Shown piece by piece: positions 22,068 to 47,572 of a stretch of 64,000 nucleotides of DNA (position 1 is the first letter of the stretch; each line of letters starts with the position of its first letter). The translations under genes and the position numbers were made by a program. The notes beneath the pieces are model-generated. The model saw nothing but the letters and a program-made list of their open reading frames with translations. It ran no database searches and had not been told where the DNA came from. Origin of the DNA: Alphaproteobacteria bacterium (GTDB lineage Bacteria > Pseudomonadota > Alphaproteobacteria > ATCC43930 > CGMCC-115725); NCBI GenBank assembly GCA_030041335.1, contig JASHOB010000037.1, positions 11,640-75,639 on the forward strand, given 5' to 3'.

Positions 22068-23045
22068 TCATGCCTTGACCGAGAACTCGACCGGCAACGC
22101 CGTCGCTGATCCGGCCTCGAGCGCCTTCTTCAGCAGGTGCTCGGCCACGACGATGTCCTGGAGTCCACTGCCTACCGATTTGAAGAGCGGCAGTTTCGCG
22201 TCGGCCAAATTTTGCGCTGCCTCGCCGCACAGTACCGAGTGCAGCGCCACGGTCTTTCCCGCAACCGGGATTCCAGCTCGCGCTGCTTCGATCATGTCCC
22301 CGGTCTGATGCAGGACTTCGTCGACGACATCGCATACGATCAAGTCAGACTTTGCCACAACAGAGACGTCGATCTCGCGCTGCTCGGGAACTGTTGAGCC
22401 GATCGATACGACGACGGTACCGGGTGAAAGCCAATCGCCGTAGACGATCGGCCGTTCGCCCCGAGAGCGCGCGGCGGCGAGGACGACCGTCGCGCCGCTT
22501 ACCGCGGCCTCCGCCGCATCGACGACGGCAACGGGGATGCCTAACTCTTTCTCGATGCTTGCGGCGAATGCTTTGCGCCGCGCCGCCGTCGGGCTGAACA
22601 CGCTGATGGCCTCAATCGGGCGCACCGTCGCGAACGCTCGGACATGCGTTCCAGCTTCAAGACCGCTACCCAAGACGCCTAGGCGCATCGGTGCCTCGCG
22701 TGCGAGCTCGTTAAGTGCGACCGCGGACGTCGCCGCGGTGCGAAATGCCGTTACCAATTCGCCATCGACAAAGGCAGCGATGCGGCTGGTAAGATGGTCG
22801 AACAGGACGATGACATACTGGACGCCGGGCCGCGATGCGCGGCCAAACGAGCCGCCCATCAGCTTGGCGCCGAAATAACGGCCTCCGGCAGGGATCGCAG
22901 GCAGCGTCCGCAGCCAGCTTCCGCCGAAACGGGCGACAGTGCGCGCCGGGGTTGCCGCCTCGGCTTGTTGTTCACGATACGCCTTCGCGAGGCAGTCAAT
23001 GACCTCATCCCATCGGAGGAGTTCTCGGGCAGCGTCCGAGGACAC
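22068..23045 (-). CDS. ornithine cyclodeaminase/mu-crystallin family protein
   Basis: Rossmann motif LGVLGSGLEAGTHV plus C-terminal SVGSGLQD. There is no in-frame ATG near the N-terminus, so I propose GTG at 23045 (VSSDAARELLRWDEV...). Start uncertain. Confidence 0.8.
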   Translation of the reverse strand: MSSDAARELLRWDEVIDCLAKAYREQQAEAATPARTVARFGGSWLRTLPAIPAGGRYFGAKLMGGSFGRASRPGVQYVIVLFDHLTSRIAAFVDGELVTAFRTAATSAVALNELAREAPMRLGVLGSGLEAGTHVRAFATVRPIEAISVFSPTAARRKAFAASIEKELGIPVAVVDAAEAAVSGATVVLAAARSRGERPIVYGDWLSPGTVVVSIGSTVPEQREIDVSVVAKSDLIVCDVVDEVLHQTGDMIEAARAGIPVAGKTVALHSVLCGEAAQNLADAKLPLFKSVGSGLQDIVVAEHLLKKALEAGSATALPVEFSVKA

Positions 23046-23095
23046 GAAATAGACGTGGCCAGCAGCGGTTATCAGACCGCTTTCGGGCAGAGTGC

Positions 23096-24010
23096 CTAGA
23101 CCGGCGGGGTCTGCCACAGCGCGGGGTCCGGCGTCGGCTTTGCCATTCCCTGTGGGCCGTCGGACAGGACGGAAGTGCCCCACTGGTCAGTTATCTCGAA
23201 GCTCGGCGGATATACAGTAGGCTTCCAGGTGGCATCGTCGACGCGGTCCACCTCGGCCGTGTATTCGAGACTGTTGCCGACTGGATCAAGGAAATACGAG
23301 AACGTGTTGTTGCCGGCGGTGTGACGCCCCGGCCCCCACTTCAACGTCACCTTGGCCTTCAGCAGCCGTCCCGCGCCGCGCATCATCTCGTCGACGTCGC
23401 GCATTTCGTAGGCGACATGGTTGAGGCAGGCGGGGCCTGGGATGAAAGCGATGCTATGGTGAACCTCGTTGCACCGTAGGAAGGACATGAAGTCACCGAG
23501 CCAGTCGCTTACCTTGAAGCCGAGCTGCTCTTCGTAGAAGTTGACTGACTTTTTGATATCGGGGGTGTGCAGGACGACGTGCGACAGCACGGCCGGGATG
23601 CTTTCGCCACGTTTCAATTCGCGCGGCGCGACCGTTGCGACATCGCTCGATATCTCTAATGTGTGTCCGTGAGGATCGAAGCAGCGAAAACCGTAGCCGC
23701 CGCCAGGACTATCCAATCGCTTCGGGTCTGAGATGAGCTTGACGCCACCTCGAGCGAACCGTTGGGCGAGGGCGTCGACGGTTCCGCGGTTGTCCACCGC
23801 GAAACCGATGACATCGAGGCTCCGCTTTGCTGCGCCGCGCCAACGCGTGATGAACGGTTCGGTAGAGCCGGGGGCGCGGAAATAGGCGAGCTCGCCGTCG
23901 GTTACAACTTCCTCTAAGCCCCAAGGGTCCTGGAGGAAATCTCGCTCGGTGGCGTAGTTCGGTCCGGCCAGGCCGACATACCGGAGCTTGGTGACGCGCG
24001 GATCGCTCAT
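23096..24010 (-). CDS. type I extradiol ring-cleavage dioxygenase (VOC superfamily, two-domain)
   Basis: 304 aa. Candidate 2-His-1-Glu triad contexts LSHVVLH, LNHVAYEM and SLEYTAE. Duplicated glyoxalase-fold modules. Confidence 0.85.
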   Translation of the reverse strand: MSDPRVTKLRYVGLAGPNYATERDFLQDPWGLEEVVTDGELAYFRAPGSTEPFITRWRGAAKRSLDVIGFAVDNRGTVDALAQRFARGGVKLISDPKRLDSPGGGYGFRCFDPHGHTLEISSDVATVAPRELKRGESIPAVLSHVVLHTPDIKKSVNFYEEQLGFKVSDWLGDFMSFLRCNEVHHSIAFIPGPACLNHVAYEMRDVDEMMRGAGRLLKAKVTLKWGPGRHTAGNNTFSYFLDPVGNSLEYTAEVDRVDDATWKPTVYPPSFEITDQWGTSVLSDGPQGMAKPTPDPALWQTPPV

Positions 24011-24082
24011 GCCTTTCCTCTCGCTGCTGTGCCGAGACTAGCGGGCACCGCCCGCCGCGGAAAATTTGATGTCACAATACCA

Positions 24083-24103
24083 CCCATCACCCGGATGGAT
24101 GGG
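24083..24103. promoter_or_regulatory. candidate LysR/NodD-type operator CCCATC-N9-GATGGG (contains ATC-N9-GAT)
   Basis: Perfect 6-bp inverted repeat, read directly. It lies in the 159-bp divergent region, about 73 bp upstream of the dioxygenase ATG and about 67 bp upstream of the LysR GTG. Confidence 0.5.
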
Positions 24104-24169
24104 CCATTTTCAAGCCGTGTTTATGGTAATCTGACGAGAAAAATTGCCAAGCAATGATGGGAGGACATC

Positions 24170-25072
24170 GTGAACCTGGTGCAGTTCGATCTCAATCTGC
24201 TGGTAGCGCTACACGCATTGCTGCGCGAACGCAACGTCACCCGCGCCGGCCAACGGATCGGCCTTAGCCAGCCGGCGATGAGCGGTACGCTAGCGCGGCT
24301 ACGCGAGCTTTTCCATGACGAACTGCTGGTGCGGGTCGGCCGCAATCTCGAGCTGACGCCACTGGCACAGGAACTGTGCGAGCCGCTACGCCAATGTATC
24401 GAGCGGATCGAGGACATGATGGATCAGCGTCGCCCGTTCACGCCGGCACGGGAAAATCGCAGCTTCACCGTCGCCGCCTCGGACTATGCCGCCTTCATGC
24501 TGTTGCCGTCGCTGCTCGACCGGCTGAGCCGCGAGGCGCCGGGCGTCACCGTGAAGTTCACCCAACTTGATGCGCGCTCGCCGGAGCTGCTTGCGAACGA
24601 TCGGGTCGATTTTGTCGTCATGCCATCGGAGATCCAGACCAACAATCCGGGAGAACTGCTGTTCATTGATCACTGGGTATGTGTCGCCTGGTCGAAGCAT
24701 CCCGAACTCGCCGATCAGCTGACCCCGGACAAATTCTGCGCTCTGCCGCATATCGGCTACGAATTGCCGGAGCATGACGGACACTCGGTCGCCGACCTGC
24801 ATCTTTCGCATTTGCAGATACGCCGTCGTGTCGCCGCCACCACCGAAAGCTTCCTGATGGCGCCATTTCTGCTGCGCGGTACGCAGTTGATCACAGTCAC
24901 CCACCATCGCCTCGCCGAACGCGTCAAGGATGCGGCGGACATTCGCATTTTTGATCCGCCTTATCCGATGCCCGACATCCACGAGAGCATCTATTGGAAC
25001 CCGCGTCACGCCAGCACGCCGTCGCATCGCTGGCTGCGCTCGATCTTTGTCGAGGTCGCGCGGCAACTGTGA
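24170..25072 (+). CDS. LysR family transcriptional regulator (NodD-like)
   Basis: N-terminal wHTH FDLNLLVALHALLRERNVTRAGQRIGLSQPAMSGTLARLRE, 300 aa. Divergent from the dioxygenase operon. Confidence 0.9.
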   Translation: MNLVQFDLNLLVALHALLRERNVTRAGQRIGLSQPAMSGTLARLRELFHDELLVRVGRNLELTPLAQELCEPLRQCIERIEDMMDQRRPFTPARENRSFTVAASDYAAFMLLPSLLDRLSREAPGVTVKFTQLDARSPELLANDRVDFVVMPSEIQTNNPGELLFIDHWVCVAWSKHPELADQLTPDKFCALPHIGYELPEHDGHSVADLHLSHLQIRRRVAATTESFLMAPFLLRGTQLITVTHHRLAERVKDAADIRIFDPPYPMPDIHESIYWNPRHASTPSHRWLRSIFVEVARQL

Positions 25073-25187
25073 CCGAATGCTGTGTGACCAAGGCGGTGCT
25101 AACCATCGGCTTCGCCGATAGCTTACATCGCAATATCCCATTGGTCGCCGCCGCGTCCCTGGTTATCGTGTGCCCAGAGAGGTACAG

Positions 25188-26237
25188 ATGACCGACGCGA
25201 CGTCGTTGCCGGACGGTGTTCACTTCGTCGGCAGTATCGCGCTCGACAGCGTCCCCGAGGTGTTCCGCGTCTGCGGCACCACGCTAGGACGGCGCCTCAA
25301 ACGCATGCCCGACGGTGAGCCCGGTGGTCGCCGGCTATGGCTTAGCTGGCAATATCCGCTGCTGCGTGCCAGCCCCTATCTCGAGGTCAACCCGGCGCAG
25401 CCTTCGGTCGCGACCGGCTTCTCCCTGTTGCGCCTCGCCGACGGCGTGAAGCCGGAAGAAGTAGGCTTCGGCGAGTTGGGCTACGCACGGGAGGCACGGG
25501 CCTCCTACCAGGATTTTTTGAGAGCACGCGATAACGGCGAGATCGCCACCGCCACGAGACTTCAGGTTGCTCTGCCCACCAAGCTGGCCGTAATCGGCGC
25601 ATTTTGTCCGGGGCCCGATATGCCGGCGATTGAGCAAGCCTACGAGCGGGCGATGGTCCGTGAGGTTGCTGCTATCGCCGAGCGTATTCCGCACCACGAT
25701 CTCTGCATTCAGTGGGATGTGTGTATCGAGATGGTGATGTATGACGGGCAATTGACGAGGTTCACGCCACCGGGCTGGCATGATGTTGGCGCCGAGATCG
25801 CGGCGCGCATGAAGCGGCTCGGCGAGGCGCTAGCGGCCGATGTCGAACGCGGCGTTCATCTCTGTTACGGCGATTGGGAGGCGCGTCATTTTGTTGAGCC
25901 GAAGGACATGAGAAAGATGGTGGAGCTCGCCAATCTGATCGCCGGCGCGATTTCCCGTCCAATCGCTTATATCCACATGCCGGTACCGATCGAGCGCAGC
26001 GACGACGCCTTCTTCGCGCCGCTGCGTGAGTTAAAGCTCGGACCAAAGACCGAACTGATCCTTAGCCTGGTCCATAATGATGGCGTCGACGCCACCAAGA
26101 CGCGGATTGCCGCGGCGCAAAAATTCATGCCGACGTTTGGCGTTGCCACCGAATGCGGCATTGCGCGCCAACGTCGCCCGGAGCTGGTAAAATCGCTGAT
26201 CCAGATTCACGCCCAAGTCTCGAGGATGCCGACATGA
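25188..26237 (+). CDS. MetE C-terminal-domain-like (cobalamin-independent methionine synthase-like) putative Zn protein, function unknown
   Basis: Start MTDATSLPDG follows AGAGAGG. VHLCYGDW, PIERSDD and ATECGIARQ line up by eye with the E. coli MetE Zn-site contexts HTHMCY, IETSRSD and NPDCGLKTR (from memory). Confidence 0.5.
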   Translation: MTDATSLPDGVHFVGSIALDSVPEVFRVCGTTLGRRLKRMPDGEPGGRRLWLSWQYPLLRASPYLEVNPAQPSVATGFSLLRLADGVKPEEVGFGELGYAREARASYQDFLRARDNGEIATATRLQVALPTKLAVIGAFCPGPDMPAIEQAYERAMVREVAAIAERIPHHDLCIQWDVCIEMVMYDGQLTRFTPPGWHDVGAEIAARMKRLGEALAADVERGVHLCYGDWEARHFVEPKDMRKMVELANLIAGAISRPIAYIHMPVPIERSDDAFFAPLRELKLGPKTELILSLVHNDGVDATKTRIAAAQKFMPTFGVATECGIARQRRPELVKSLIQIHAQVSRMPT

Positions 26238-27229
26238 CCGCGAAGCCGGACCTCACCGACTTTGCACTCGGCACGTTTTCCGTTGCCGGCGCGACGCCGT
26301 TCGCCGGGCTGGTAATTGATGGCCGCGTGATTGCCGGCGGAACCGAATCGGTGCTTCAACTTTTGCAGCGTTGGCATGAGGCTTTTCCGGCGCTGCGACG
26401 GCTTGCGGACGATTTTCGTGCCGGTTCACGTTCGGCAGAACTGCGGGAGCGCTCGGCGCCGGTCGAAAGCTTGCGTATGCATCCGCCCGTGTATCTTCCT
26501 CGCAACGTCTATTGCGCTGGGATGAATTACCGCAAGCACGTCATCGATCTGATCATGTCGCAATCCGGGGTCGCGGATCGGCCTGGCCTAAGCGAATCCG
26601 AACGCCGTGCCGAGGCGGAGAAGACCATGGATGTGCGAGCGTCGAGCGGGGAGCCGTTCGTCTTCATAAAGGCGGCATCCTCCGTCGTCGGGGCGCGGGA
26701 TCCGGTTCCGCTACCCGAGGGGGTGACTCGGCCCGATTGGGAATTGGAGCTCGGAGTGGTGATGGGGCGCCCTGCGCGGCATGTGAAGCGTGATGAAGCG
26801 CTGAAATATGTCGCCGGCTATGCGATCGTGAATGACATCACGGCACGCGATCGCATCAACCACAAGGAAATGCGCTTCGATTGGCTCAAGGGAAAATCGC
26901 AGCCGGGATTCCTACCGTTCGGCCCCTATCTGGTGCCCGCGGCGTTTGTCCCCGATCCGCAAGGGTTGCGCCTGACGCTAAAACTCAACGGTCAGGTCAT
27001 GCAGAACGAGTCGAGCGCCGACATGATCTACGGCGTTGCGCGGCTGATCGAGTATCTCTCGGAGCACGTTCAGCTCTTGCCCGGCGATCTGATCTGCACC
27101 GGGTCGCCCGCGGGCAACGGCGCCCATTATAACCGTTTCCTTCGCCCCGGCGACGTGATGGAAACGGAAATCGACGGCCTCGGGACGCAACGCAACATGT
27201 GTAGCGTCGAAGGCAGGCGGGAAGGCTGA
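26234..27229 (+). CDS. fumarylacetoacetate hydrolase (FAH) family protein
   Basis: Start MTAKPDLTDF overlaps the upstream stop as ATGA. FAH motifs GMNYRKHV, ELELGVVMG, NDITARD, KGKS, GSPAG. Confidence 0.85.
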   Translation: MTAKPDLTDFALGTFSVAGATPFAGLVIDGRVIAGGTESVLQLLQRWHEAFPALRRLADDFRAGSRSAELRERSAPVESLRMHPPVYLPRNVYCAGMNYRKHVIDLIMSQSGVADRPGLSESERRAEAEKTMDVRASSGEPFVFIKAASSVVGARDPVPLPEGVTRPDWELELGVVMGRPARHVKRDEALKYVAGYAIVNDITARDRINHKEMRFDWLKGKSQPGFLPFGPYLVPAAFVPDPQGLRLTLKLNGQVMQNESSADMIYGVARLIEYLSEHVQLLPGDLICTGSPAGNGAHYNRFLRPGDVMETEIDGLGTQRNMCSVEGRREG

Positions 27230-27230
27230 C

Positions 27231-28415
27231 ATGGCAAGATTCTCCTATACGCGCGACGCCCTGATCGAACGTGCGAGGACGCTGGCACCATTGCTAAGCC
27301 AGCGCGCGGCCGAGACCGAAAGGTTACGGCGTCTCCCGGAGCAGACGCTCGCGGATTTTCGGCGGGCCGGGCTGATGGGGTTGCTCAAGCCGCAAAGATT
27401 CGGCGGCCCCGAAGTGCGCATCGACACGGCCATGGAGGTGACGGCCGAGTTGGCACGCGGCGACGGCTCGGCGGCCTGGGTCTGGGTTATTCTCGCCTGC
27501 CATGACACGCTCGCCGCGTTTTTTTCGGAGGCGGCCCAAGAGGAGTTCTGGGTCGAGCCGGACGCGCTGATGGCTTCCAGCTTTGCACCATCAGGCAAGG
27601 CGGAGGGCGCAGAAGGCGGCTATCGTTTATCCGGCAAGTGGTCCTACTGCAGTGGCGTCGATTGCGCGCAATGGCTCATGCTCGGCGCGATCGCTGGTAT
27701 GCGCAGCGTCGATCCGCCGCTACCGGAACTGATTTACACGCTGGTCCCGCGTCAGGACGTGACGGTAATCGACGATTGGTACGTCATGGGTTTGCGCGGC
27801 ACCGGCAGCAAAAGCGTCGTCGCCAGCGACATTTTCGTACCCGCGTACCGCACGTTTTCCTGGACCGCCGCGGGCGACGGCACTACGCCAGGGACGAAAG
27901 TACACCCAAGTCCGCTCTATCGTGCGCCGATGATGGCATTCTTTCCCTTCTTCATCTCCTCGCCGGGGGCAGGCATCGCCCGCGGCGGCCTCGATGCATT
28001 CGTCTCCGAAATGAAGGAACGTCGGCTGCAAGACGGCTCTCCGATGGGCCGGGTGCCAGGCGTACAGATGCGTGTCGCCGAAGCTTCGGCCCTGATCGAT
28101 GCCGCCGATCTGCTCTATAAGCGCTCGCTACGTGAGACGATGGACAAGATTTTTGCCGGCGAGAGGCTCGATCTCGAGCATCGCGCCCGTAGCCGCCGCG
28201 ATCAAACCTATTCGCTGGTGCTCGCGAAACGTGCGGTGGAGTTATTGTTCTCAGCCGAGGGCGCGCGAGGCCTTTATGACGACCATCCGGTGCAACGTGC
28301 CGCCCGTGATCTGCACGCGGTGTCGTCGCATTTGGTCGCGACCTGGGACGCCCCGGCAGCGGCCTACGGCGCCGTCAGGCTGGGTTTTGCTCCGGCGCCG
28401 AATTTTCCCTTGTGA
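27231..28415 (+). CDS. acyl-CoA-dehydrogenase-fold flavin-dependent monooxygenase, oxygenase component (HsaA/C2-HpaH/DszC-like)
   Basis: 394 aa. N-terminus ...AAETERLRRLPEQTLADFRRAGLMGLLKPQRFGG, then YRLSGKWSYCSG and GLRGTGS. This is the pattern of ACAD-type two-component monooxygenases. Confidence 0.8.
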   Translation: MARFSYTRDALIERARTLAPLLSQRAAETERLRRLPEQTLADFRRAGLMGLLKPQRFGGPEVRIDTAMEVTAELARGDGSAAWVWVILACHDTLAAFFSEAAQEEFWVEPDALMASSFAPSGKAEGAEGGYRLSGKWSYCSGVDCAQWLMLGAIAGMRSVDPPLPELIYTLVPRQDVTVIDDWYVMGLRGTGSKSVVASDIFVPAYRTFSWTAAGDGTTPGTKVHPSPLYRAPMMAFFPFFISSPGAGIARGGLDAFVSEMKERRLQDGSPMGRVPGVQMRVAEASALIDAADLLYKRSLRETMDKIFAGERLDLEHRARSRRDQTYSLVLAKRAVELLFSAEGARGLYDDHPVQRAARDLHAVSSHLVATWDAPAAAYGAVRLGFAPAPNFPL

Positions 28416-38389: not shown

Positions 38390-39739
38390 CTACGCGTTGG
38401 TGACCGCGAGCACGCGGTCGACCATGAGCTCCGAAAGCCCGAGATACCCGGTGGGATCGGTCAGCCGGCGAATCTCGGCCGCGGAGAGGGTGGCCATCAC
38501 GTCGTCGCGCCCGAGCAGCATATCGGCGAGGCTCTTCTCGCCCATGGCAGGGTTGTGGATGATCGCGTAGAGGACGTCGTGTGCCTTGTCCCGGCCCATC
38601 TTGGGTGCCAGCCCCATCATAACCGCTTCCGAGACGATCAGCCCCCGTGTCGCGTCGAGGTTAGCGCGCATCCGCTCGGCGTGAACCTCGAGCCCCTCCA
38701 GGACGAAACAGGCTTGCGCCAAGGCGCCGGCGGCGAGCGTAAAGACGCCTGGCAGCGCGATCCATTCGATCTCCCAAGGGCCCGTGGCGCGCTCATGGTC
38801 CTCGACCATCGCGTCGAGGAGCGATGCAACCCCCTGCCGCACCGCTGCGGCGCAGGCGTGTATATAGCAGCACGAAATCGGGTTGCGCTTCTGCGGCATG
38901 GTCGAAGACGAGCCGCGATTTGCGACATAGGGCTCGCTCGCCTCGCCGACCTCCGTCTGCATCATCAGCTTGAGGTCAGTGGCAAACTTGGCAAGCGTGC
39001 CGGTGAGAAGCCCGAGAAAGCAGCCCGCCTCCGCGATGCGGTCGCGTTCGGTGTGCCAGGCGATCTCTGGCGGCGCAAGCCCGAGCTCGCGTGCCAACAC
39101 TTCCTGCACCAAGAGCCCTTTGTCGCCAAGAGTCGCGAGGGTGCCCGCGGCGCCGCCGAACTCGAGCACCTCGATGCGTGGACGGATTTCGAAAAGTCGC
39201 GAGCGATGGCGCTTAAGCGTCGCAAGCAGCCGCGCCATCTTGAAGCCGAAAGTGATCGGAACCGCCTGTTGCAGGTTGGAGCGGGCGGGCATCGGCGTCG
39301 AACGATGATCGCGGGCGAGCTTTTCCGTTGCCGCAATGGCGCGGTCGAGGTCGCTGGCAATCAGGTCAAAAGAGGCCTTGATCTGCAGGATGGTGGCGGA
39401 GTCCGTGACGTCCTGGGTGGTGGCTCCCCAATGGCAGTATTTGCCGGCATCCCCTCGACAGAGATGGGCAATCTGGTGGACGAGGCCAAGCACTGGATAG
39501 CCGATGGTAAGCGTCTCCTTCGCATAGGCTTCAAAGTCGACGTTCTCGACCTTGCACACACTGCTGATCTCATCGGCCGCTTCCGGCGGGATCAGCCCTA
39601 CCGCGGACTCGGCGCGGGCAAGCGCCGCCTCCCACTCGAGGTATTTTTTGGTTCGGTACGTGTCCGACCAGACCTCGCGCATCGCGGGTGAGCCGAAGAT
39701 GTCGCGGAAGATCAGACTGTCGATGGCGCTGGTGGACAT
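38390..39739 (-). CDS. class II fumarase/aspartase superfamily lyase (adenylosuccinate lyase / 3-carboxy-cis,cis-muconate cycloisomerase-like)
   Basis: Start MSTSAIDSLIFRDIFG follows an AAGGGAG RBS. Signature GSSTMPQKRNP, plus WGATTQDV. The plus-strand 484-aa ORF is a shadow. Confidence 0.8.
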   Translation of the reverse strand: MSTSAIDSLIFRDIFGSPAMREVWSDTYRTKKYLEWEAALARAESAVGLIPPEAADEISSVCKVENVDFEAYAKETLTIGYPVLGLVHQIAHLCRGDAGKYCHWGATTQDVTDSATILQIKASFDLIASDLDRAIAATEKLARDHRSTPMPARSNLQQAVPITFGFKMARLLATLKRHRSRLFEIRPRIEVLEFGGAAGTLATLGDKGLLVQEVLARELGLAPPEIAWHTERDRIAEAGCFLGLLTGTLAKFATDLKLMMQTEVGEASEPYVANRGSSSTMPQKRNPISCCYIHACAAAVRQGVASLLDAMVEDHERATGPWEIEWIALPGVFTLAAGALAQACFVLEGLEVHAERMRANLDATRGLIVSEAVMMGLAPKMGRDKAHDVLYAIIHNPAMGEKSLADMLLGRDDVMATLSAAEIRRLTDPTGYLGLSELMVDRVLAVTNA

Positions 39740-39999
39740 GATGACTCCCTTGAACGTGTTGTCGGCGTGCGCGGTCGCCGGAGTGGATCGAAGCACGGGC
39801 CGCCGTGGGCATTGCTGAGCGCAGGCCTTCGCCTCAGTGGGCTTTTCAGCAACACGATCGCCCGAAAGTCTTCACGTTTCCATCTATAGCGCCGCTATTG
39901 TCTGTCATGACAGGGCTAGCCTCGACCTTGAGGGACTCTGCCGCGACTATGAAGAGGGGGTGCAGCCGCTGCGATGCCAAACGGCACGGTTTGCGCGAT

Positions 40000-40992
40000 T
40001 CATCGGTGCGAATCTCGGTCCCGCGCCAACCGCGGGAACAGTTTGAGTGCGTTATCCCTCGCCACCGTCACGCGCTCTCCATCAGTGAGCAAGTCGGTCG
40101 ATCGCAGGAAGGCGACGTAATCGCCGACGGTCGGTTCCGGGGTGAACGGGAAATCGCCCCCGAAAAGGATCTGCGTCACCGGTATAAGCCGACGCAGCGC
40201 GGGAATCGCGTGAGCGTTTGCGGCGCCGGCGGTGTCGCAATAGAAGCGCTGCATTTCCACCAGCGCCTCTGTCGCGTTCATGCCGGCCGCCGCGTTGCGA
40301 CTGCTACGGATAATTCGTTGAATGAGAAAGGGAAGGGTGCCTCCTGCATGCGGCAGGATGAATTTAATTTCGGGACAACGGCGGGTCGTGCCAGAAAACA
40401 CGAGGTTAACGGCGGCACGGGTCGTGTCGAAAGGAAATTCGATCATCGGTGCCGGCCGCCCAAGGCTGAGGGCCTCGAAGCAGGCGGGCGAGGTTGGGTG
40501 AAGGAAGACTACCGCCCCGCGACGGTTCAGCTCATCGAAGATCGGCGCCAGCGCCTCACTGCCGAGATAAATCCCGTGCGCATTCGTCATCAACACTATC
40601 CCATCGGCGCCAAGATGATCGAAGGCAAAGCCGATCTCCGCCAGGGATGCGCCCACGTCCTCAAGGGGCAGGGTAGCGAATAAGCCGAACCGTGCGGGAT
40701 GGGCCTTTACGTAGGCCGCTCCCGCTTCATTTACCGCACGCGCGAGCCGTACCGCCGCGTTGCCCCGAACAAACTGCACGCTCGGCGACGACAGGGACAG
40801 GATTTGGGTCGCGGTGTGACAACGGTCCATCATCCCCAGCGAATCCTCCGCGTTCCAACGCGGGATCGGTATCCCGCCGTCAAGCTTCGTCACGCGGGCG
40901 TCCCGCAGGGCCTCGTAATAGACCGGCGGCAGGTAGTGCGCGTGGACATCGATCCAGCCATCGCTGGCTGACGGCTTGTCGCCTTCCATCAT
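40000..40992 (-). CDS. amidohydrolase-2 family protein (ACMSD-like metal-dependent decarboxylase/hydrolase)
   Basis: WIDVHAHYLPP N-terminal metal motif. I chose the start at MMEGD because GGAGGAG lies just upstream; 41004 is an alternative start. Confidence 0.8.
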   Translation of the reverse strand: MMEGDKPSASDGWIDVHAHYLPPVYYEALRDARVTKLDGGIPIPRWNAEDSLGMMDRCHTATQILSLSSPSVQFVRGNAAVRLARAVNEAGAAYVKAHPARFGLFATLPLEDVGASLAEIGFAFDHLGADGIVLMTNAHGIYLGSEALAPIFDELNRRGAVVFLHPTSPACFEALSLGRPAPMIEFPFDTTRAAVNLVFSGTTRRCPEIKFILPHAGGTLPFLIQRIIRSSRNAAAGMNATEALVEMQRFYCDTAGAANAHAIPALRRLIPVTQILFGGDFPFTPEPTVGDYVAFLRSTDLLTDGERVTVARDNALKLFPRLARDRDSHR

Positions 40993-41285
40993 TGCTCCTC
41001 CCATGAATCCAGGTGTCTCAGTCTAATGCCGAATCATCAAAGATTGTGGACGGATGATCAGCAAGCGGAAGCCGAGCATGCGATCTTTGTGGACAATCAC
41101 GGACGGCGACAGCAATAGTTGGACAGCCGCCGGTGTCGGAGCTGTCAGCTCGCGTGTGGTCGCCGCGAATGTTTGATCATATGTGTCAGAATATCGATGG
41201 TGCCCTGCCGACGATCAAATGAACGCGACGGAAACATCCGGCCGTTTGGCGACCAGATGTTTTGGCCACGAGCGAGAGAGAAAAA

Positions 41286-42929
41286 ATGGATGGTCTGAGG
41301 AGGGCAGCGCGTTCGATCCGGTCGGAAGCGCGAGCGATGTTGCTTGGCGTTGCCATCGGCATGTTCGGATTGGCGACGGTGGCAGGTGCTCAGACCGGCG
41401 CGACAAATCCCGCCGCGGGAGCGGCTAAAATGAAATGTGCCGACCTCGTCGGGCTGACGATCCCCGGCTCAACCATGGTTATCACGAAGGCGACCGCGAT
41501 GCCGGCAGCGGCGCCAAACACGGTACTTTACATGCCGCCGGCGCCAATGACCGTCGGCGTCGCGATGCCACCTTACTGTCGCGCCGAGGGCGAGATCGAC
41601 AAGCGCGTCGGCGTTGGCGGCAAGCCCTATGCCATCGGCTTCGCCATAGCGCTGCCCGACCGTTGGGGCGGCCGCTTCCTCTATCAGGGCGGCGGTGGCT
41701 TGAACGGCACAATCGCGCCGCCGTTCGGCATGGTCGCGGCGGGCGGCCGCCCGGCGCTGGCGCGTGGTTTTGCCGTGGTCTCGACCGACAGCGGGCACAA
41801 GGGCGCGGTGTTCGACGCCTCGTTCTTCGCCGACCAGGAAGCGACCCTCAATTTTGCCAGTGCTTCCGTCGGCAAGGTGACCCAGACGGCCAAGGCGATT
41901 ATCGCCGCCTATTACGGCGCGCCCCCGAAACATTCCTATTTCACCGGCTGCTCGACCGGCGGCCGCGAGGGCATGCTGGCATCGGAACGCTATCCCGAGG
42001 ATTTCGACGGCATCGTCTCGGGCGATCCGGCGATGAATACCGGCTTGTCCAATCTCGGTCTTGCCTGGTTCAACTATCAGATGACGCAGATCGCGCCGAA
42101 AGACGCGTCGGGCACGCCGCAGCCGGACAAGGCATTCTCCGCTGCCGACCGCAAGCTCGTGGTCGACGGCATCCTCGAAACGTGCGACGCAGCTGATGGC
42201 ATCAGGGACGGGATGATCTTCAATCCGAAGCAATGTCATTTCGACCCAGCGGTGCTGCAATGCCATAGTGGTAAGACCGACGCCTGCCTCTCGCCGCAAC
42301 AGGTCAATGCGTTGAAAAAAGCTTTCGCCGGACCGAAGAATTCCCGCGGCACACAGGTCTATCCGCCGTTCCCTTGGGATACCGGCATCGCCGCGCACGG
42401 CTTCATCCCCGGAATCCTCACTAGCGCCGGCAGCAGTCCCGTCAACGCGAAGGCTTATCCAACGATCGATGTCGACGCGATCGAGGATGCCGTCGGGGCC
42501 AATGGGGTGACGCAGCTCACCAACACGGTGCGATGGACCAATCTAACCAGCTATTTCGCCCACGGCGGGAAGATCCTCTATTTCCACGGCTGGAGCGATC
42601 CGTGGTTCTCGGCACTGGACACGCTGCAATATTACGAGCGCATGGCAAAGGATTCGGGCGGGCTTGACAAGGTGCGGGCGCAATCGAGCCGCGTCTTCTT
42701 CGTTCCTGGTATGGGCCATTGCGGTGGCGGCCCAGCCACGCTCGATAATTTCGATCTGTTGGCCGCTGTGGTCAATTGGGCTGAGAACGGCATGGCCCCG
42801 GATTACGTCATCGCCACCGGCCACGATCTCCCGGGCCGCTCGCGTCCGCTTTGCGCCTGGCCGCAACACGCACAGTACAAGGGCTCGGGCAACGCCGACG
42901 CCGCCGCCAACTTCACCTGCCAAGATTGA
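41286..42929 (+). CDS. tannase/feruloyl esterase family alpha/beta hydrolase, secreted
   Basis: Signal peptide-like AMLLGVAIGMFGLATVAGAQT. Nucleophile context YFTGCSTGGREG. Multiple conserved Cys. Start 41286 or TTG 41262. Confidence 0.8.
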   Translation: MDGLRRAARSIRSEARAMLLGVAIGMFGLATVAGAQTGATNPAAGAAKMKCADLVGLTIPGSTMVITKATAMPAAAPNTVLYMPPAPMTVGVAMPPYCRAEGEIDKRVGVGGKPYAIGFAIALPDRWGGRFLYQGGGGLNGTIAPPFGMVAAGGRPALARGFAVVSTDSGHKGAVFDASFFADQEATLNFASASVGKVTQTAKAIIAAYYGAPPKHSYFTGCSTGGREGMLASERYPEDFDGIVSGDPAMNTGLSNLGLAWFNYQMTQIAPKDASGTPQPDKAFSAADRKLVVDGILETCDAADGIRDGMIFNPKQCHFDPAVLQCHSGKTDACLSPQQVNALKKAFAGPKNSRGTQVYPPFPWDTGIAAHGFIPGILTSAGSSPVNAKAYPTIDVDAIEDAVGANGVTQLTNTVRWTNLTSYFAHGGKILYFHGWSDPWFSALDTLQYYERMAKDSGGLDKVRAQSSRVFFVPGMGHCGGGPATLDNFDLLAAVVNWAENGMAPDYVIATGHDLPGRSRPLCAWPQHAQYKGSGNADAAANFTCQD

Positions 42930-43183: not shown

Positions 43184-44195
43184 TCATCGCAGCGTTCCCG
43201 TTAACTCGAAGGGCCAGCCGGACCCGGCAATTCCTACAAAAGACCGTGGTTGCGATAATAGGTCAATGCCGCTGAAGCCAGGGAATGGAGGTCGCGGCGA
43301 TCCTTTGGGATCCAATGGATACGTGATGGGGGTGTCTTGCGGCGGTATATGCCGATACTGGCTCTCGATAAGGTCCGGCGTTTCGCAGAGCAATGCCGCG
43401 ATCGTGTAGGCGATGTCGTCCGGCAGATCATCCCGGCAGAACAGCAGGAAATCGGAAAAGTCCAGCGCCAGGAACGGCGCGGCAGGATTGGGGAAACGGT
43501 CCTGTGGAACGATTGCACGGCGCCAGCCAAAAGGCGCGCTCGACGGTGTTTAGGGCAGTTTCCTCAAAAGGAATGAAGTTCATCGATCGTGCAATACACA
43601 ACTCCTTCCAGTGAGGCGTCATCACCGCCTCGAATAGCACGGCGTCGGCCTCGCCGCGCGTCCGCCAGAGGTATGGTATCCCAAGGCCCTTCGCCGAAAA
43701 GCATTTTGCCACCCCAGGATTAAATCGCCGCGGGCGTGGCGCCAGATGCTTCGAGCAGGCGGTGGGCGGCAAATCCGGTCATGTTGACCCCGTCATCCGG
43801 AGCCGTGGCAAGGTGCAGCTTCGGTCGTTTGGCCCGAAGCTCAGCGAAACTCGAAATACCGAAATGAGCATCAATTGCTAGCACCAGCCGATCGTCTTGC
43901 GGCAAGGTTGCGAATGCGCGCAACCGCGTCACATCGGGTCGCCGGCAGATTCCCTTGCCATCGAACACGGTTGGCGCGAAGCCCGCCGGCACAAATAGGC
44001 AATCTGCACCTCGCCATCCAGTATCGCTTCAATCGTGTCGGTTCCGCCGCGCCCGGCCCAGGTCGCGAACTTGGAGCCCGACGGCGATCGGCGCCACAAC
44101 TCGGCGCTGATCCAGCCGCAGATTCGGTGCAGATTGGCAATGCCCCAATCGCCCATCATATGGAGCGTGATGGAGCGTTCGATCCGGGCTTCCAT
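43184..44195 (-). pseudogene. frameshifted TAXI/NMT1-like solute-binding-domain gene
   Basis: Protein-like segments continue across at least 4 frame changes: MEARIERSITLHMMGDWG...EVQIAYL / PAGFAPTVFDGKG...HRLLEASGATPAAI / ...RGEADAVLFEAVMTPHWKEL...ERAFW / ...FLALDFSDFLLFCRDDLPDDIAYTIAALLCETPDL... / ...LHSLASAALTYYRNHGLL*. All neighbouring genes are intact. Confidence 0.5.
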
Positions 44196-44236
44196 TGTCG
44201 GCGCCTTTGACTTCGGTGCCGTGAGGGTATAGCCTC

Positions 44237-44259
44237 AATTAGTAGATATCTATCTAATT
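44237..44259. promoter_or_regulatory. candidate MarR operator, AT-rich imperfect palindrome AATTAGTAGATATCTATCTAATT
   Basis: Read directly. It is centred on GATATC and ends 12 bp upstream of the MarR ATG, within the 75-bp divergent spacer to the pseudogene. Confidence 0.45.
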
Positions 44260-44270
44260 GTCGACTTGCG

Positions 44271-44816
44271 ATGAAAAACCTCCGCGCTGTCTCAAAGCCG
44301 GTCATGCCCGCCGCAAACGACGACCTCGTCCCACTGGCGCGCAGCGTAGGCTATCACATTCGCCAGCTTGCCGAGACTTGGCAGGACGCAATGGATGTTG
44401 CGGCGGCGGCCCACGGCGTGACAATCAGCCAGTGGCGCTATCTACGCGAGCTGTGGGAAGAAGACGGATTGTCGACCGGCGAGCTCACCCGTCGCGTCGG
44501 TCGTCAAGGTCCAACGACGGTGGTCGCGGTGCGTCTGCTCGAACGGGAAAGCCTGGTCACGGTTGTCAAGTCTGACGTCGACCACCGGCGGAGCGTCATT
44601 CGTTTGACGCCACGCGGGCGGCGCCTTGCTGCGACCATGGCGCCGCTGATCCGCGCCGTGAACGAACACGCGATGTCTGATTTGTCCGACGCCGAGATTC
44701 GCGCTTTCAAGCGACTAGTTGTCCGGATCCAACGCCGACTCAATGCTGAACGGCACGAACGCAACGAGTGGGCGGAGATGCGGACAGACGGGTTGGCTCA
44801 GGAGGTCGGGCTCTAG
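44271..44816 (+). CDS. MarR family transcriptional regulator
   Basis: 181 aa. wHTH region ISQWRYLRELWEEDGLSTGELTRRVGRQGPTTVVAVRLLERESLVTVVKSDVDHRRSVIRLTPRG. Confidence 0.9.
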   Translation: MKNLRAVSKPVMPAANDDLVPLARSVGYHIRQLAETWQDAMDVAAAAHGVTISQWRYLRELWEEDGLSTGELTRRVGRQGPTTVVAVRLLERESLVTVVKSDVDHRRSVIRLTPRGRRLAATMAPLIRAVNEHAMSDLSDAEIRAFKRLVVRIQRRLNAERHERNEWAEMRTDGLAQEVGL

Positions 44817-44835
44817 AACCATCAGGGAGGAGCAT

Positions 44836-45117
44836 ATGCCGCAATTCATCACCATCCATCGCGCGCCGGGACTGAAGCGCGAGGAGTTGGCACAAAACGC
44901 GCCGCAAGTGGTCGGCGCGACGATCGCCAAATTCGAGCATCTCTACGTTAACATCGCGTCGGGCTTCATCGTCTCGGTGTTTGAGGCCGACACCAAAGAG
45001 CAAGTCGAAGAGCAGATGGAGGTACTCGGTTTTCCCGTCGATGAGATGCATGAAGTGCATTTCAGTCAGTCGCGCGCCGAGATGGAGCGAATGCTCAAAC
45101 AAGATAGCAACAACTGA
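44836..45117 (+). CDS. DUF4242-like small ferredoxin-fold protein
   Basis: Start MPQFITIHRAPGLKREELAQ follows a GGGAGGAG RBS. 93 aa. The pattern (MPxF...PG...EE..., central Y/V-rich strands, C-terminal GFP...EV) matches my memory of the DUF4242/SCO4226-like family. Confidence 0.55.
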   Translation: MPQFITIHRAPGLKREELAQNAPQVVGATIAKFEHLYVNIASGFIVSVFEADTKEQVEEQMEVLGFPVDEMHEVHFSQSRAEMERMLKQDSNN

Positions 45118-45118
45118 G

Positions 45119-45811
45119 ATGGGAGACGTGCTCGTGACCGAGGATAATCCTGTCATTCCGCCGCCGCGTCGGGACCGACCGCCCCTCAAGGTCAACGTCT
45201 TCGAAGCGATGCAACACAGCAACACCCAGTTGATGCCGCTCTTTCCCTATCTTCATCCAGGCGCAATGGTGCCTGCGGGCGCCATGATCATCGGTGGCCC
45301 CAATGCGGATTATGGCCATTTCTTCCACCACAACACGCAGGACGAGGTGGTCCTTGCGTTGGCTGCCAACGGGGCGGTGCTGGGGACCGGCCAGGTCTTC
45401 GTCGGTGCGCGGATTCACGGCGTCAACTCCTTCCTCAAAAAAGAGAAGGACGCGAAATCCTTCGCCATCATGGTCATCACTCAGCGGCAAGCGGAAAGCG
45501 GTCCGCAAAGGGAGGCCTGCAGCCTCCGCTGTGAGAAATGCCACGAGGAGATCTATCTGAAGGAATTTGATGCGACGCCGCCGCCCGACGCGTTGGAGGG
45601 CGAGCATCCCTTCGTCTCCGTCGCGGTGTTGCCGGAGCTTTTCGCGGACTTCAACAATGACGAAGCACGCCGGGTCTGTACCAAATGCGGCCATCTGAAC
45701 CGGCCTTTCCCGGTGGCGTCATGGGGCTGGGATAGGTATGCCACGCAAAGCGCCACGACGATCGCCGGCCGCCAGGCACTGAAGCAGGCGACCCAGACAC
45801 CAATCAAATAG
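45119..45811 (+). CDS. 3-hydroxyanthranilate-3,4-dioxygenase-like cupin, divergent long form (cupin A)
   Basis: 230 aa. Its start lies 1 nt after the upstream stop. Cupin core HFFHHNTQDEVVLALAANG...GARIHGV. Two CxxC pairs (RCEKC ... VCTKCG) like the rubredoxin-type site of bacterial HAO. Confidence 0.7.
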   Translation: MGDVLVTEDNPVIPPPRRDRPPLKVNVFEAMQHSNTQLMPLFPYLHPGAMVPAGAMIIGGPNADYGHFFHHNTQDEVVLALAANGAVLGTGQVFVGARIHGVNSFLKKEKDAKSFAIMVITQRQAESGPQREACSLRCEKCHEEIYLKEFDATPPPDALEGEHPFVSVAVLPELFADFNNDEARRVCTKCGHLNRPFPVASWGWDRYATQSATTIAGRQALKQATQTPIK

Positions 45812-45818
45812 GTGTCGC

Positions 45819-46385
45819 ATGCCGCGCAAGAAGACATTCCAGGCGATGCGGGAAGCCGAGAAGGTCGGCCCCTACGACGACATGCCGATGCTACCTCAGG
45901 ACCTCCAGCTTCAGGTACACCTGTCCCGTAACGACCGACCGCAGCCGTTCCATCAGATCTTCGAGAAGGACACGCTGTTGTTTCTGCTCTCGGGCAGCGG
46001 AACGGTGGAAATGAAGGACTCGCCGGTCGCCCGCTTCACGATCAGGCCCGGCGATTGCGTCTATGTCCCGGCGGGCGTGCCGCATCGCATCGTGCCAGAT
46101 GAGGAGAGCGTGATGCTGCGCTACAAGCCCCAGCCTGCGGGCCTCGAAGGCATGGTCTGGTACTGCGCCGATTGCAACACCGAACTGTATCGGAGGGCGT
46201 GGAATGCCGACACGGCCGTGTCGCAAGCCATGTTCCACGAGGCGAGCCATGAATTTGGAGCGACGCCAAGCCGGCGCAAATGCCCCAAATGTGGCGTGAT
46301 GCATCCGCCACCGGATCTTAAAGGGTTTCGCTGGACTGAAGTGGCGCAAGACCTCAAGCGATCGGCCGCGGCCACCGCGCCATGA
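45819..46385 (+). CDS. 3-hydroxyanthranilate-3,4-dioxygenase-like cupin (cupin B)
   Basis: 188 aa. FHQIFEKDTLLFLLSGSG, GDCVYVPAGVPHRIVP, PQPAGLEGMVWYCADCNTEL and RRKCPKCGVMHPP align closely by eye with the Ralstonia/Cupriavidus HAO segments YHDDPLEEFFYQLRGNA, GDIFLLPPHVRHSPQRP, RPAGMLDGFEWYCDACGHL and RRCPHCGQVHPG (from memory). Confidence 0.75.
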   Translation: MPRKKTFQAMREAEKVGPYDDMPMLPQDLQLQVHLSRNDRPQPFHQIFEKDTLLFLLSGSGTVEMKDSPVARFTIRPGDCVYVPAGVPHRIVPDEESVMLRYKPQPAGLEGMVWYCADCNTELYRRAWNADTAVSQAMFHEASHEFGATPSRRKCPKCGVMHPPPDLKGFRWTEVAQDLKRSAAATAP

Positions 46386-47572
46386 GTTCAAAAATCGCCA
46401 CGACAAGCGACGCGGAACTGGTGGCGCGCGCCGAGCGATTGGTGCCGGAATTGCGCGAGCGGGTGGCTACTGCCGAGCGCCTGCGGCGCCTGCCGGACGA
46501 GAATGTAGCGGCGGTACGGTCGGCGGGCCTGTTCAAGGTTTTGCAACCAAGGTCGTTCGGAGGCCATCAGGCATCGCTGCGGACCCACATTGACGTCGTC
46601 GCCACTCTGGCGCGCGGCTGTGCCGCGACGGGATGGTGTGCCGGTGTGATACACGCCCATTCATGGCTCATGGGTTTGTTTCCCTGGCAAGCCCAGGAGG
46701 ATGCCTACGGCAGCGATCCCGATACCATCATCTCGGCGGTTATCTCGCCGCGCGGCGCCGCCAAACGGGTCGAAGGCGGCTATCTGCTTAGCGGCGCCTG
46801 GACCTTCTGCTCCGGCTGCGAGCACGCGCGATTCCTGTTGCTCGGCGCCGCGGTACAAGACGATGCGGGGGCGAACGTCGACGAAGGCGATCTCCTGGTC
46901 CCGGTAGGGGACGTCACGATCAAAGACGACTGGAATGTCATCGGTCTACGCGGCACCGGAAGCTGCAGCATCGTTGCCGAAAATGTCTTCGTGCCCGGGC
47001 ACCGTTATCTTTCGCTGCCCGCCGCGATCGCTGGCAAGGCGCCCGGCATCGAACAGCAGCAGGGCTGGCTCTATCGGGCCGCTGCGGTTCCGGTCCTGGC
47101 GCTGGCGATCACGCCGGCGGCCTTGGGAATTGCCGAGGCCGCGCTGACGACCTTCATGCAAGGGCTTCGTGGCCGCAAAGTCGCTTACACCCAACACGAG
47201 ATTCAGCGGGACATGCCGGTCACCCATTTGCAGGTTGCCGACGCGGCGACCAAGATCGCCACGGCCCGCCTCGTCTTATGCCATTGCGCAGATGAGATTG
47301 AAGCGGCGGCCCGCGTCGGGGACACCATGGCGTTCAGAAAGCGCGCTCGCGTCCGCATGGACTGCGCATGGTCGGTGCGCCTTTGTGTCGAAGGCATCGA
47401 GATCCTGATGCTGGCCTCCGGCGGCTCCGGCATCTCCGAAAACAACGCTGTGCAGCGCGCTTGGCGCGACCTTCACGCCATCAATATGCACGGCCTGCTC
47501 AACCTCGAGACCAATCAGGAAATGTATGGGCGTGTCTTGCTCGGGCTGAAGCCAAACACCCCCTTGATCTGA
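46382..47572 (+). CDS. acyl-CoA-dehydrogenase-fold flavin-dependent monooxygenase, oxygenase component (paralog of 27231..28415)
   Basis: 396 aa. ATGA overlap with cupin B. ...ATAERLRRLPDENVAAVRSAGLFKVLQPRSFGG, YLLSGAWTFCSG, GLRGTGS. Confidence 0.8.
   Translation: MSSKIATTSDAELVARAERLVPELRERVATAERLRRLPDENVAAVRSAGLFKVLQPRSFGGHQASLRTHIDVVATLARGCAATGWCAGVIHAHSWLMGLFPWQAQEDAYGSDPDTIISAVISPRGAAKRVEGGYLLSGAWTFCSGCEHARFLLLGAAVQDDAGANVDEGDLLVPVGDVTIKDDWNVIGLRGTGSCSIVAENVFVPGHRYLSLPAAIAGKAPGIEQQQGWLYRAAAVPVLALAITPAALGIAEAALTTFMQGLRGRKVAYTQHEIQRDMPVTHLQVADAATKIATARLVLCHCADEIEAAARVGDTMAFRKRARVRMDCAWSVRLCVEGIEILMLASGGSGISENNAVQRAWRDLHAINMHGLLNLETNQEMYGRVLLGLKPNTPLI

Follow-up and report, generated by a model that had tools for sequence, protein, structure and literature searches.

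Paired cupins of the 3-hydroxyanthranilate dioxygenase fold as a candidate electron-dependent oxygenase in aromatic catabolism

Which reaction is served by two different cupins, both related in fold to 3-hydroxyanthranilate dioxygenase (HAO), when their genes stand side by side in one operon? The question is raised by a 64,000-nucleotide stretch of an alphaproteobacterial genome (hereafter the window; contig JASHOB010000037.1, positions 11,640 to 75,639), in which five co-directional and tightly packed open reading frames (ORFs) on the + strand encode a MarR-family protein, a DUF4242-like protein, cupin A, cupin B and an HsaA-like oxygenase (coordinates refer to the window, + strand unless stated; Table 1). 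An earlier note on this DNA had recognized these genes, their packing and their likely families, which the ORFs and profile hidden Markov model searches bear out, and had proposed that hydroxylation of an aromatic compound is followed here by HAO-type ring cleavage. We put at about even the chance that A and B (together, A/B) form one heteromeric non-heme-iron oxygenase that depends on electrons and whose reaction precedes ring cleavage.

Fold and conserved residues of the two cupins

Membership of the HAO family was assessed with the models PF06052, TIGR03037 and PRK13264 (NCBIfam cutoffs of 220 and 146 bits; Pfam 3-HAO gathering score of 25). Cupin A reached 26.7 and 22.5 bits against the two NCBIfam cutoffs and matched no Pfam domain; cupin B reached 52.8 bits (E 4.5e-14) and 47.4 bits, with a Pfam Cupin_2 match and a weak 3-HAO match (19.8 bits). 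A sequence search of the PDB with B retrieved HAO at 1.7e-7, and the same search with A, as a single sequence or as a 16-sequence profile, returned nothing significant, the tie between A and HAO consisting of predicted fold and hhalign. The AlphaFold model of A (pLDDT 94) found HAO structures in all of its top 22 Foldseek PDB matches (best E 1.9e-7), the model of B (pLDDT 94.9) matched HAO at E 2.6e-11 (TM ~0.75), and neither model has a strong PDB match outside HAO. The two proteins thus have the HAO-type cupin fold, with a C-terminal CxxC...CxxC (Cys4) site conserved in both families, yet fall below the curated HAO cutoffs, as the note had anticipated in calling them HAO-like but not canonical.

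Residue conservation was read from alignments of 101 A sequences and 103 B sequences. His70, Glu76, His100, Cys138 and Cys141 of A are invariant, and Cys187 and Cys190 are each present in 100 of the 101 sequences, so that A keeps a 2-His-1-Glu triad together with a rubredoxin-like Cys4 site (Cys138/141/187/190). When A is aligned by hhalign to the HAO of Cupriavidus metallidurans (triad H51, E57 and H95), His70 falls on His51 and Glu76 on Glu57. The first iron-ligand position of B (position 45) is His in 62 sequences, Tyr in 26, Phe in 14 and Trp in 1, the second His (H89) is kept in 94 of 103, and Asp51, Tyr82, Arg101 and Glu110 are invariant. Given that the triad is invariant in A and unconserved in B, the sequences identify A as the probable conserved catalytic subunit and B as its diverged partner. 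With regard to the residues through which HAO handles its substrate, R47 lies opposite a variable position of A (64), no Arg is found in A at R99, where B has a gap, and the catalytic E110 aligns with Gln122 of A, which is Gln in 99 of the 101 sequences.

These features can also be explained if A/B is a heteromeric HAO-type extradiol ring-cleavage dioxygenase (that is, a catalytic alpha subunit with a degenerate beta subunit), opening an o-aminophenol or a diol made by the HsaA-like hydroxylase, with the DUF4242 protein handling metal and electron carriers re-reducing an easily oxidised Fe(II) centre as XylT does; its analogues would be AmnAB, LigAB and PnpCD. We regard this, the main rival reading, as unlikely. 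Both subunits have the HAO fold and A keeps the triad, and in the window B is translationally coupled to the HsaA-like hydroxylase, all of which suit ring cleavage, but the absence of R47 and R99 from A and the replacement of E110 by Gln speak against this reading and disfavour the hydroxylase-then-cleavage logic of the earlier note.

The conserved module and neighbouring electron carriers

One genome per species was scanned, which yielded 79 distinct loci encoding an A homologue, and partner genes were placed by tblastn. B follows within 300 nt of A in 75 of the 79 (median gap 18 nt; most exceptions lie at the ends of contigs). Such loci occur in Alphaproteobacteria (Stellaceae and others), Myxococcota (Enhygromyxa and Plesiocystis), many Actinomycetota, Binatia, Chloroflexota and Acidobacteriota. 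Among 1.84 billion cluster representatives, a profile search recovered 219 representatives of the A family at E <= 1e-3, canonical HAO not being among the best 150 of these 219 matches, and the divergent A of Sphingobium, used as a query, found 3 relatives only. A/B is a rare, widely scattered and uncharacterised module: a literature search found no publication on the family, a multi-omics paper on Sphingobium AntQ-1 does not mention the A/B genes and, in line with the note, no characterised pathway was found for the block. Two candidate relatives from the literature were discarded, the cupins of Rhodococcus TFB proteomics being different proteins and LumY, a cupin of riboflavin catabolism, being unrelated.

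Could A and B instead be independent, homodimeric paralogues, that is, two HAO-like dioxygenases that serve two steps or related compounds from one operon? The window copy of B retains H45, E49/D51 and H89, and the barrel interior of B holds the invariant polar residues D51, Y82, R101 and E110, as might be expected of an enzyme in its own right. Against this, the A-then-B order is near-universal with short gaps, in the searches run neither A nor B was seen without the other beside it except at contig ends, ~40% of B proteins are without the first iron-binding His, and single-chain B-A fusions exist (P0278, P0297, P0317, P0327, P0335 and P0341 in the profile search). We consider two separate enzymes very improbable, and the A+B pair emerges from the neighbourhood survey as the unit that the note had taken it to be.

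The partners of this unit differ from those in the note, which had treated the five genes as a block and had overlooked one protein. An HsaA-like gene lies within 3 kb of A in only 8 of the 79 loci, whereas a DUF4242 protein does so in 55 and a ~325-aa protein of the TAXI/NMT1_3 solute-binding fold in 50; the core module is therefore A+B with the DUF4242 and TAXI-like proteins rather than the five-gene block. The DUF4242-like protein of the window scores 26.8 bits against PF14026, just below the gathering score of 28.5, but all of its orthologues (18 of 18) match this family (best 1.2e-9), and their profile matches the structure of SCO4226 (4oi3) at 4.2e-8. We infer that this ferredoxin-fold protein is an accessory of A/B with an effector or metal-handling role. 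A role as a Pro-1 tautomerase acting on a ring-fission product was rejected, because the Pro at the N-terminus varies, with Ala as residue 2 in many orthologues.

The TAXI-like family matches Pfam NMT1_3 at 64.6 bits and TIGR02122 at 55 bits (cutoff 84). It has no signal peptide, its N-terminus running directly into the first beta-strand, and is therefore predicted to be cytoplasmic; a QM membrane gene was not in the neighbour lists of most loci, in which QM was not searched for systematically. In relatives the TAXI-like gene is intact and divergent from marR, as it is intact in most other loci and in L006, a relative with 84-92% identity. The window carries a decayed copy, in which tblastn of an intact orthologue passes through three reading frames and an in-frame stop, with three or more changes of frame. 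Assembly errors were rejected as the cause of the frameshifts: the region is 99.9% identical, with 0 gaps, in independent assemblies that share the lesions, and the window copy is therefore a genuine pseudogene.

Three further observations concern the composition of the module. A conserved 72-75-aa protein with Cys residues (motifs YRCPNTG and YCEKCxxxH; no Pfam match) follows B in 15 of the 79 loci (among them L007, L008, L012, L014 (5607-5825), L016, L018, L019, L021, L057 and L082) and is missing in the window, its place being taken by the HsaA-like gene. Two A/B pairs lie within ~9 kb of one another in the Acidimicrobiales loci L053, L055, L058, L063, L064 and L068. In Spirillospora (L001/L061) an extra A-like paralogue stands directly after B, in the order A-B-A'.

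A non-catabolic function was also weighed, in which A/B would serve in redox stress or detoxification (for example, as a rubredoxin-coupled enzyme handling peroxide, superoxide, quinones or metals), MarR a sensor of oxidants or aromatics and the DUF4242 protein a Ni/Fe buffer. The combination of a Cys4 site with mononuclear iron recalls the 2Fe superoxide reductases, the module is often found by itself, the actinobacterial operons end with a CMD/AhpD-like gene, and one source labels the MarR regulators of the cluster 'organic hydroperoxide resistance regulator'. SCO4226, moreover, is a nickel-binding, nickel-induced protein (PMC4186839). The MarR label is, however, a generic automatic annotation, the cytoplasmic partner of solute-binding fold suggests an organic ligand, and the neighbours of the module are overwhelmingly aromatic-catabolic, all of which makes a stress function improbable.

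Genes for electron transfer recur beside the module. Counted as homologues within 5 kb of A, they occur in 27 of 88 loci and fall into four or more kinds without homology to one another; among these are ferredoxin with FNR, PDR/VanB-type reductases and flavodoxin, alone or with a reductase. The operon of Actinomycetota reads A-B-DUF4242-TAXI-FNR-Fer4 ferredoxin-CMD with gaps of 3-86 nt, and plasmid pANTQ-1 of Sphingobium sp. AntQ-1 (L088) encodes a cytoplasmic protein of the solute-binding-protein fold, A, B and a PDR/VanB-type FNR-[2Fe-2S] reductase that starts 4 nt after B. (This A/B-reductase operon, at 115519-120518 of the pANTQ-1 record, is divergent, lies between insertion sequence elements and adjoins nadC.) One metagenome contig carries NMT1_3, A, B, a dienelactone hydrolase and a PDR-type reductase; on another, a ferredoxin reductase and a flavodoxin adjoin A/B; flavodoxin fragments and an FAD oxidoreductase stand beside A/B on plasmid pGal_C110 of Phaeobacter gallaeciensis; and close alphaproteobacterial relatives of the window have a flavodoxin gene behind the TAXI-like gene, in the same direction. 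The association can also be covalent or nearly so, as two B-A fusions bear a C-terminal Rieske [2Fe-2S] domain (P0336 and P0332; Pfam Rieske 9e-17 and 3.6e-18) and, at locus L099, a B-A fusion overlaps at its stop with the start of the next gene, which encodes a 109-aa Rieske ferredoxin. Within the clade of Rieske fusions, B has lost its Cys4 site and A keeps its own, a pattern that points to the Cys4 iron of A as a conserved electron relay.

Non-orthologous replacement of donors and covalent fusion are both seen in multicomponent oxygenases, whereas extradiol dioxygenases are known with single repair ferredoxins. Full electron chains, a reductase 4 nt after B and covalent Rieske fusions exceed what is known of such repair ferredoxins. 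Since such carriers are linked or fused to A/B and are not needed by a ring-cleaving dioxygenase, ring cleavage is disfavoured as its role.

We propose that A and B are two subunits of one non-heme-iron enzyme descended from the HAO fold, in which A would carry the catalytic 2-His-1-Glu iron and a rubredoxin-type Cys4 iron site and B would be a diverged partner whose own triad is dispensable. Rather than a self-sufficient ring-cleaving dioxygenase, A/B would be a terminal oxygenase that receives low-potential electrons, probably through the Cys4 site, from interchangeable donors (that is, ferredoxin/FNR, a PDR/VanB-type reductase, flavodoxin or a Rieske ferredoxin) and that acts on an aromatic, probably carboxylated, compound ahead of ring cleavage, by hydroxylation, demethylation or another oxygenation. 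The DUF4242 protein may be an effector, and the cytoplasmic TAXI-like protein may bind or deliver the substrate. In the window, the module would be repressed by MarR. It has lost its TAXI-like partner to decay and has gained a translationally coupled HsaA-like flavin monooxygenase; this enzyme would place one more hydroxyl on the product of A/B, with ring cleavage left to an enzyme encoded elsewhere. The fuller version of this proposal, in which A/B represents a new class of multicomponent oxygenase with an HAO-fold Cys4 relay, interchangeable carriers, a TAXI-like substrate-binding or delivery subunit and a DUF4242 effector, is advanced tentatively, as plausible but somewhat short of an even chance.

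The catabolic neighbourhood bears on the order of the reactions. Recurrent neighbours of A/B are gentisate-dioxygenase-like bicupins, FAA hydrolases, FAD monooxygenases, VOC extradiol dioxygenases and class II aldolase-like proteins, along with IclR/GntR/MarR regulators and TRAP and MFS transporters; ACMSD, AMS dehydrogenase and deaminase are not among the recurrent neighbour clusters. A gentisate-dioxygenase-like or VOC ring-cleavage gene lies within 10 kb in 24 of the 79 loci, and such canonical enzymes alongside would make a ring-cleaving A/B redundant. At L099 the order is LysR, LigA-LigB, HsaA-like, MarR, TAXI-like, B-A, Rieske ferredoxin, DctQM, DctP and Amidohydro_2; with a hydroxylase and a dedicated ring-cleavage enzyme beside it, A/B is most simply envisioned to perform an earlier, reductant-dependent oxygenation of an aromatic acid that the cell imports. 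Across most alphaproteobacterial loci MarR is the module's sole companion, and enzymes that would process a ring-fission product are lacking, which fits a funnelling oxygenase better than a ring-opening enzyme. In favour of ring opening are the HsaA-like genes found near A/B in several arrangements (13 of 79 loci within 10 kb) and the OCD/mu-crystallin-type imine-handling genes near A/B, which would fit a nitrogen-containing product.

Several further points weigh against an electron-dependent oxygenase. The closest structural relatives of A and B are all ring-cleaving dioxygenases, the family is known from sequences and predicted structures, and the residue mapping of A onto HAO is a sequence-profile alignment (92.7% probability) rather than a superposition. 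FAA-hydrolase genes, typical processors of ring-fission products, lie within 10 kb in 27 of the 79 loci, and nadC (quinolinate phosphoribosyltransferase) beside the Sphingobium pair hints at a quinolinate-forming, HAO-like chemistry. A ferredoxin may do no more than restore an extradiol dioxygenase after its oxidation, as XylT does, and the Cys4 site of bacterial HAO, which has been described as a reservoir of iron, is not known to carry electrons. About two thirds of the loci are without a recognisable carrier within 5 kb, and homologues of ferredoxin, flavodoxin, FNR and flavin reductase are absent from the 64-kb window, so that any electron donors would have to be encoded elsewhere. This lack of local carriers is the main local weakness of the electron-fed model.

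Predicted regulation and genomic setting of the window operon

Gaps of 19, 1 and 7 nt separate the first four genes of the operon, B and the HsaA-like gene overlap by 4 nt (ATGA), and no intergenic terminator-like site was found on the + strand within the operon. Four independent assemblies carry the same block at 99.9% identity. A GTG at 45134, behind a GGGAGA Shine-Dalgarno sequence, is likely to be the true start of cupin A and gives the 225-aa form called by NCBI.

The MarR protein matches Pfam MarR_2 at 34.6 bits (gathering score 27) and Pfam MarR at 34.2 bits, also above its gathering score, and is weakly HpaR-like (49 bits against a cutoff of 121); a MarR gene precedes the module in ~24 of the 79 loci. 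The palindrome that the earlier note had placed in front of the operon is present and is unique in the window, with 0 expected from shuffles. Its core, TAGATATCTA, is found once in each of 16 related alphaproteobacterial loci, in every case immediately before marR, from which it is a sound inference that MarR controls the operon, probably through this predicted operator; the pairing of regulator and putative operator in the note is accordingly plausible. The promoter-like element before the palindrome scores under the threshold of a consensus scan. Relatives keep its -35 box as TTGACA, the palindrome core being preceded there by TTGAC(A/T)-17 nt-TA...T, and the element may well serve as the promoter.

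The last gene probably encodes the oxygenase component of a two-component flavin-dependent monooxygenase of the HsaA/C2-HpaH kind. Its product matches Acyl-CoA_dh_2 (PF08028) at 107.7 bits and, in the PDB, the HsaA structure 2rfq (6e-74; 252 bits) and 2jbr (3e-57), but on the NCBIfam equivalog models it stays below the cutoffs, with 335 bits on HsaA, the nearest model (cutoff 450), and 248 bits on HpaH (cutoff 650). It thus shares with HsaAB and C2-HpaH the acyl-CoA dehydrogenase (ACAD) fold and the Acyl-CoA_dh_2 C-terminal domain, and resembles their solved members, without qualifying as an HsaA or HpaH orthologue; unlike those systems, it has no reductase partner in the window, no flavin-reductase homologue being found within these 64 kb. 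As the few HsaA-like genes near A differ in position and orientation between loci, the gene recurs beside the module but is optional there, an addition made in particular lineages.

Table 1 Features of the window
Feature	Position	Strand	Length	Remarks
LigXa-type Rieske oxygenase (Rieske + LigXa_C) and glutamine-synthetase-like protein	10585-13316	-		translationally coupled
Second aromatic cluster	22068-28415			OCD/mu-crystallin-like (-), VOC extradiol dioxygenase (-), LysR, 355-aa protein, FAA hydrolase, HsaA-like
Protein of the second aromatic cluster	25170-26237	+	355 aa	no Pfam, NCBIfam or PDB match
PcaB-like lyase (3-carboxymuconate cycloisomerase homologue), Amidohydro_2, tannase/feruloyl-esterase family	38390-42929			upstream of module; PcaB-like 508 bits (cutoff 595)
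Decayed TAXI-like / NMT1_3 gene	43304-44210	-		pseudogene
Promoter-like element	44207-44235	+		TTGACT-17 nt-TAGCCT; read from sequence, upstream regions aligned by eye
Imperfect palindrome	44236-44260		25 nt	CAATTAG-TAGATATCTA-T-CTAATTG; probable MarR operator, overlaps transcription start region
MarR-family repressor (predicted)	44271-44816	+	181 aa	
DUF4242/SCO4226-like protein	44836-45117	+	93 aa	
Cupin A	45119-45811	+	230 aa	
Cupin B	45819-46385	+	188 aa	
ACAD-fold HsaA-like flavin oxygenase	46382-47572	+	396 aa	

Other aromatic genes lie upstream in the window. The statement in the note that no kynurenine- or nba-type partners are found in the operon is literally true, with the qualification that an Amidohydro_2 protein (of the ACMSD superfamily, without an NCBIfam match) is encoded 3.2 kb upstream on the opposite strand, in a group of genes whose synteny with the module is kept only in the closest relative, L006. 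The second aromatic cluster could supply the ring-cleavage steps. Its gene families accompany A/B in Actinomycetota and Acidimicrobiales, and its HsaA-like oxygenase is 37% identical to that of the operon. The 355-aa protein of this cluster has no family match and so tells nothing about the substrate. Proteins encoded at a distance of 1-3 kb from Acidimicrobiales A/B pairs share 43% identity with it, and Binatia and Streptosporangiaceae have related ones; the family (c15) is found within 10 kb in 11 of the 79 loci and is an orphan that travels with these pathways. Farther upstream, the coupling of a LigXa-type Rieske oxygenase to a glutamine-synthetase-like protein recalls gamma-glutamylation-dependent systems of amine or aniline oxidation.

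Relation to known oxygenases and implications

Bacterial HAO (NbaC; for example, C. metallidurans 1YFU) shares with A and B the cupin barrel and the C-terminal rubredoxin-like Cys4 site, and with A the 2-His-1-Glu triad at aligned positions. It differs in sequence (17-23% identity, with A/B scores 4-8 fold below the curated cutoffs), in being a homodimer where A and B are two different subunits, in its R47, R99 and E110, and in its gene context, A/B being without the operon of ACMSD, dehydrogenase and deaminase and having carriers adjoining or fused to it. The division into a catalytic subunit and a diverged, non-catalytic subunit encoded by adjacent genes is found in 2-aminophenol 1,6-dioxygenase (AmnAB), LigAB and hydroquinone dioxygenase (PnpCD/HapCD), and PnpCD-type chains are among the weaker fold matches of B. 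AmnAB and LigAB, however, have the LigB-type fold, and all three differ from A/B in subunit sizes and in having no Cys4 sites. We know of none among them that needs, or is fused to, electron carriers.

Multicomponent oxygenases offer a parallel in organization, a likeness drawn from genes, folds and fusions (that is, partners encoded with or fused to A/B in the carrier-bearing loci, and the Rieske fusions) and absent in the window. As in the Rieske oxygenases (for example, VanAB and phthalate dioxygenase, with a PDR-type reductase), interchangeable NAD(P)H-reductase and ferredoxin partners stand beside a putative oxygenase that would combine a mononuclear 2-His-1-carboxylate iron with a second iron centre that could relay electrons. 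The operon also includes a small cofactor-less alpha/beta protein, which recalls the small effector protein of those soluble di-iron monooxygenases that use a Rieske ferredoxin. Unlike these Rieske/Bet v1 and four-helix-bundle enzymes, A/B has the cupin/HAO fold with a Cys4 site, and an extra, predicted cytoplasmic TAXI-like protein.

The hosts of the family include cultivable organisms (Phaeobacter gallaeciensis, Sphingobium sp. AntQ-1, Streptomyces, Nocardia, Mycobacterium and Enhygromyxa), some of which are genetically tractable, and the hypothesis is therefore directly testable. Were A/B instead to cleave rings, it would be the first heteromeric HAO-type ring-cleavage enzyme. If the proposed oxygenase is borne out, a ring-cleaving dioxygenase scaffold would have been recruited for reductant-dependent chemistry, adding a new scaffold to the few enzyme types that start aerobic aromatic degradation and a third architecture for electron-dependent aromatic oxygenation beside the Rieske and di-iron oxygenases. 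It would also assign a redox function to the rubredoxin-like site of HAO-fold proteins, and give a working role to three orphan groups, namely the A family, for which Pfam has no model, the linked DUF4242 proteins and the TAXI-like proteins that lack a signal peptide.

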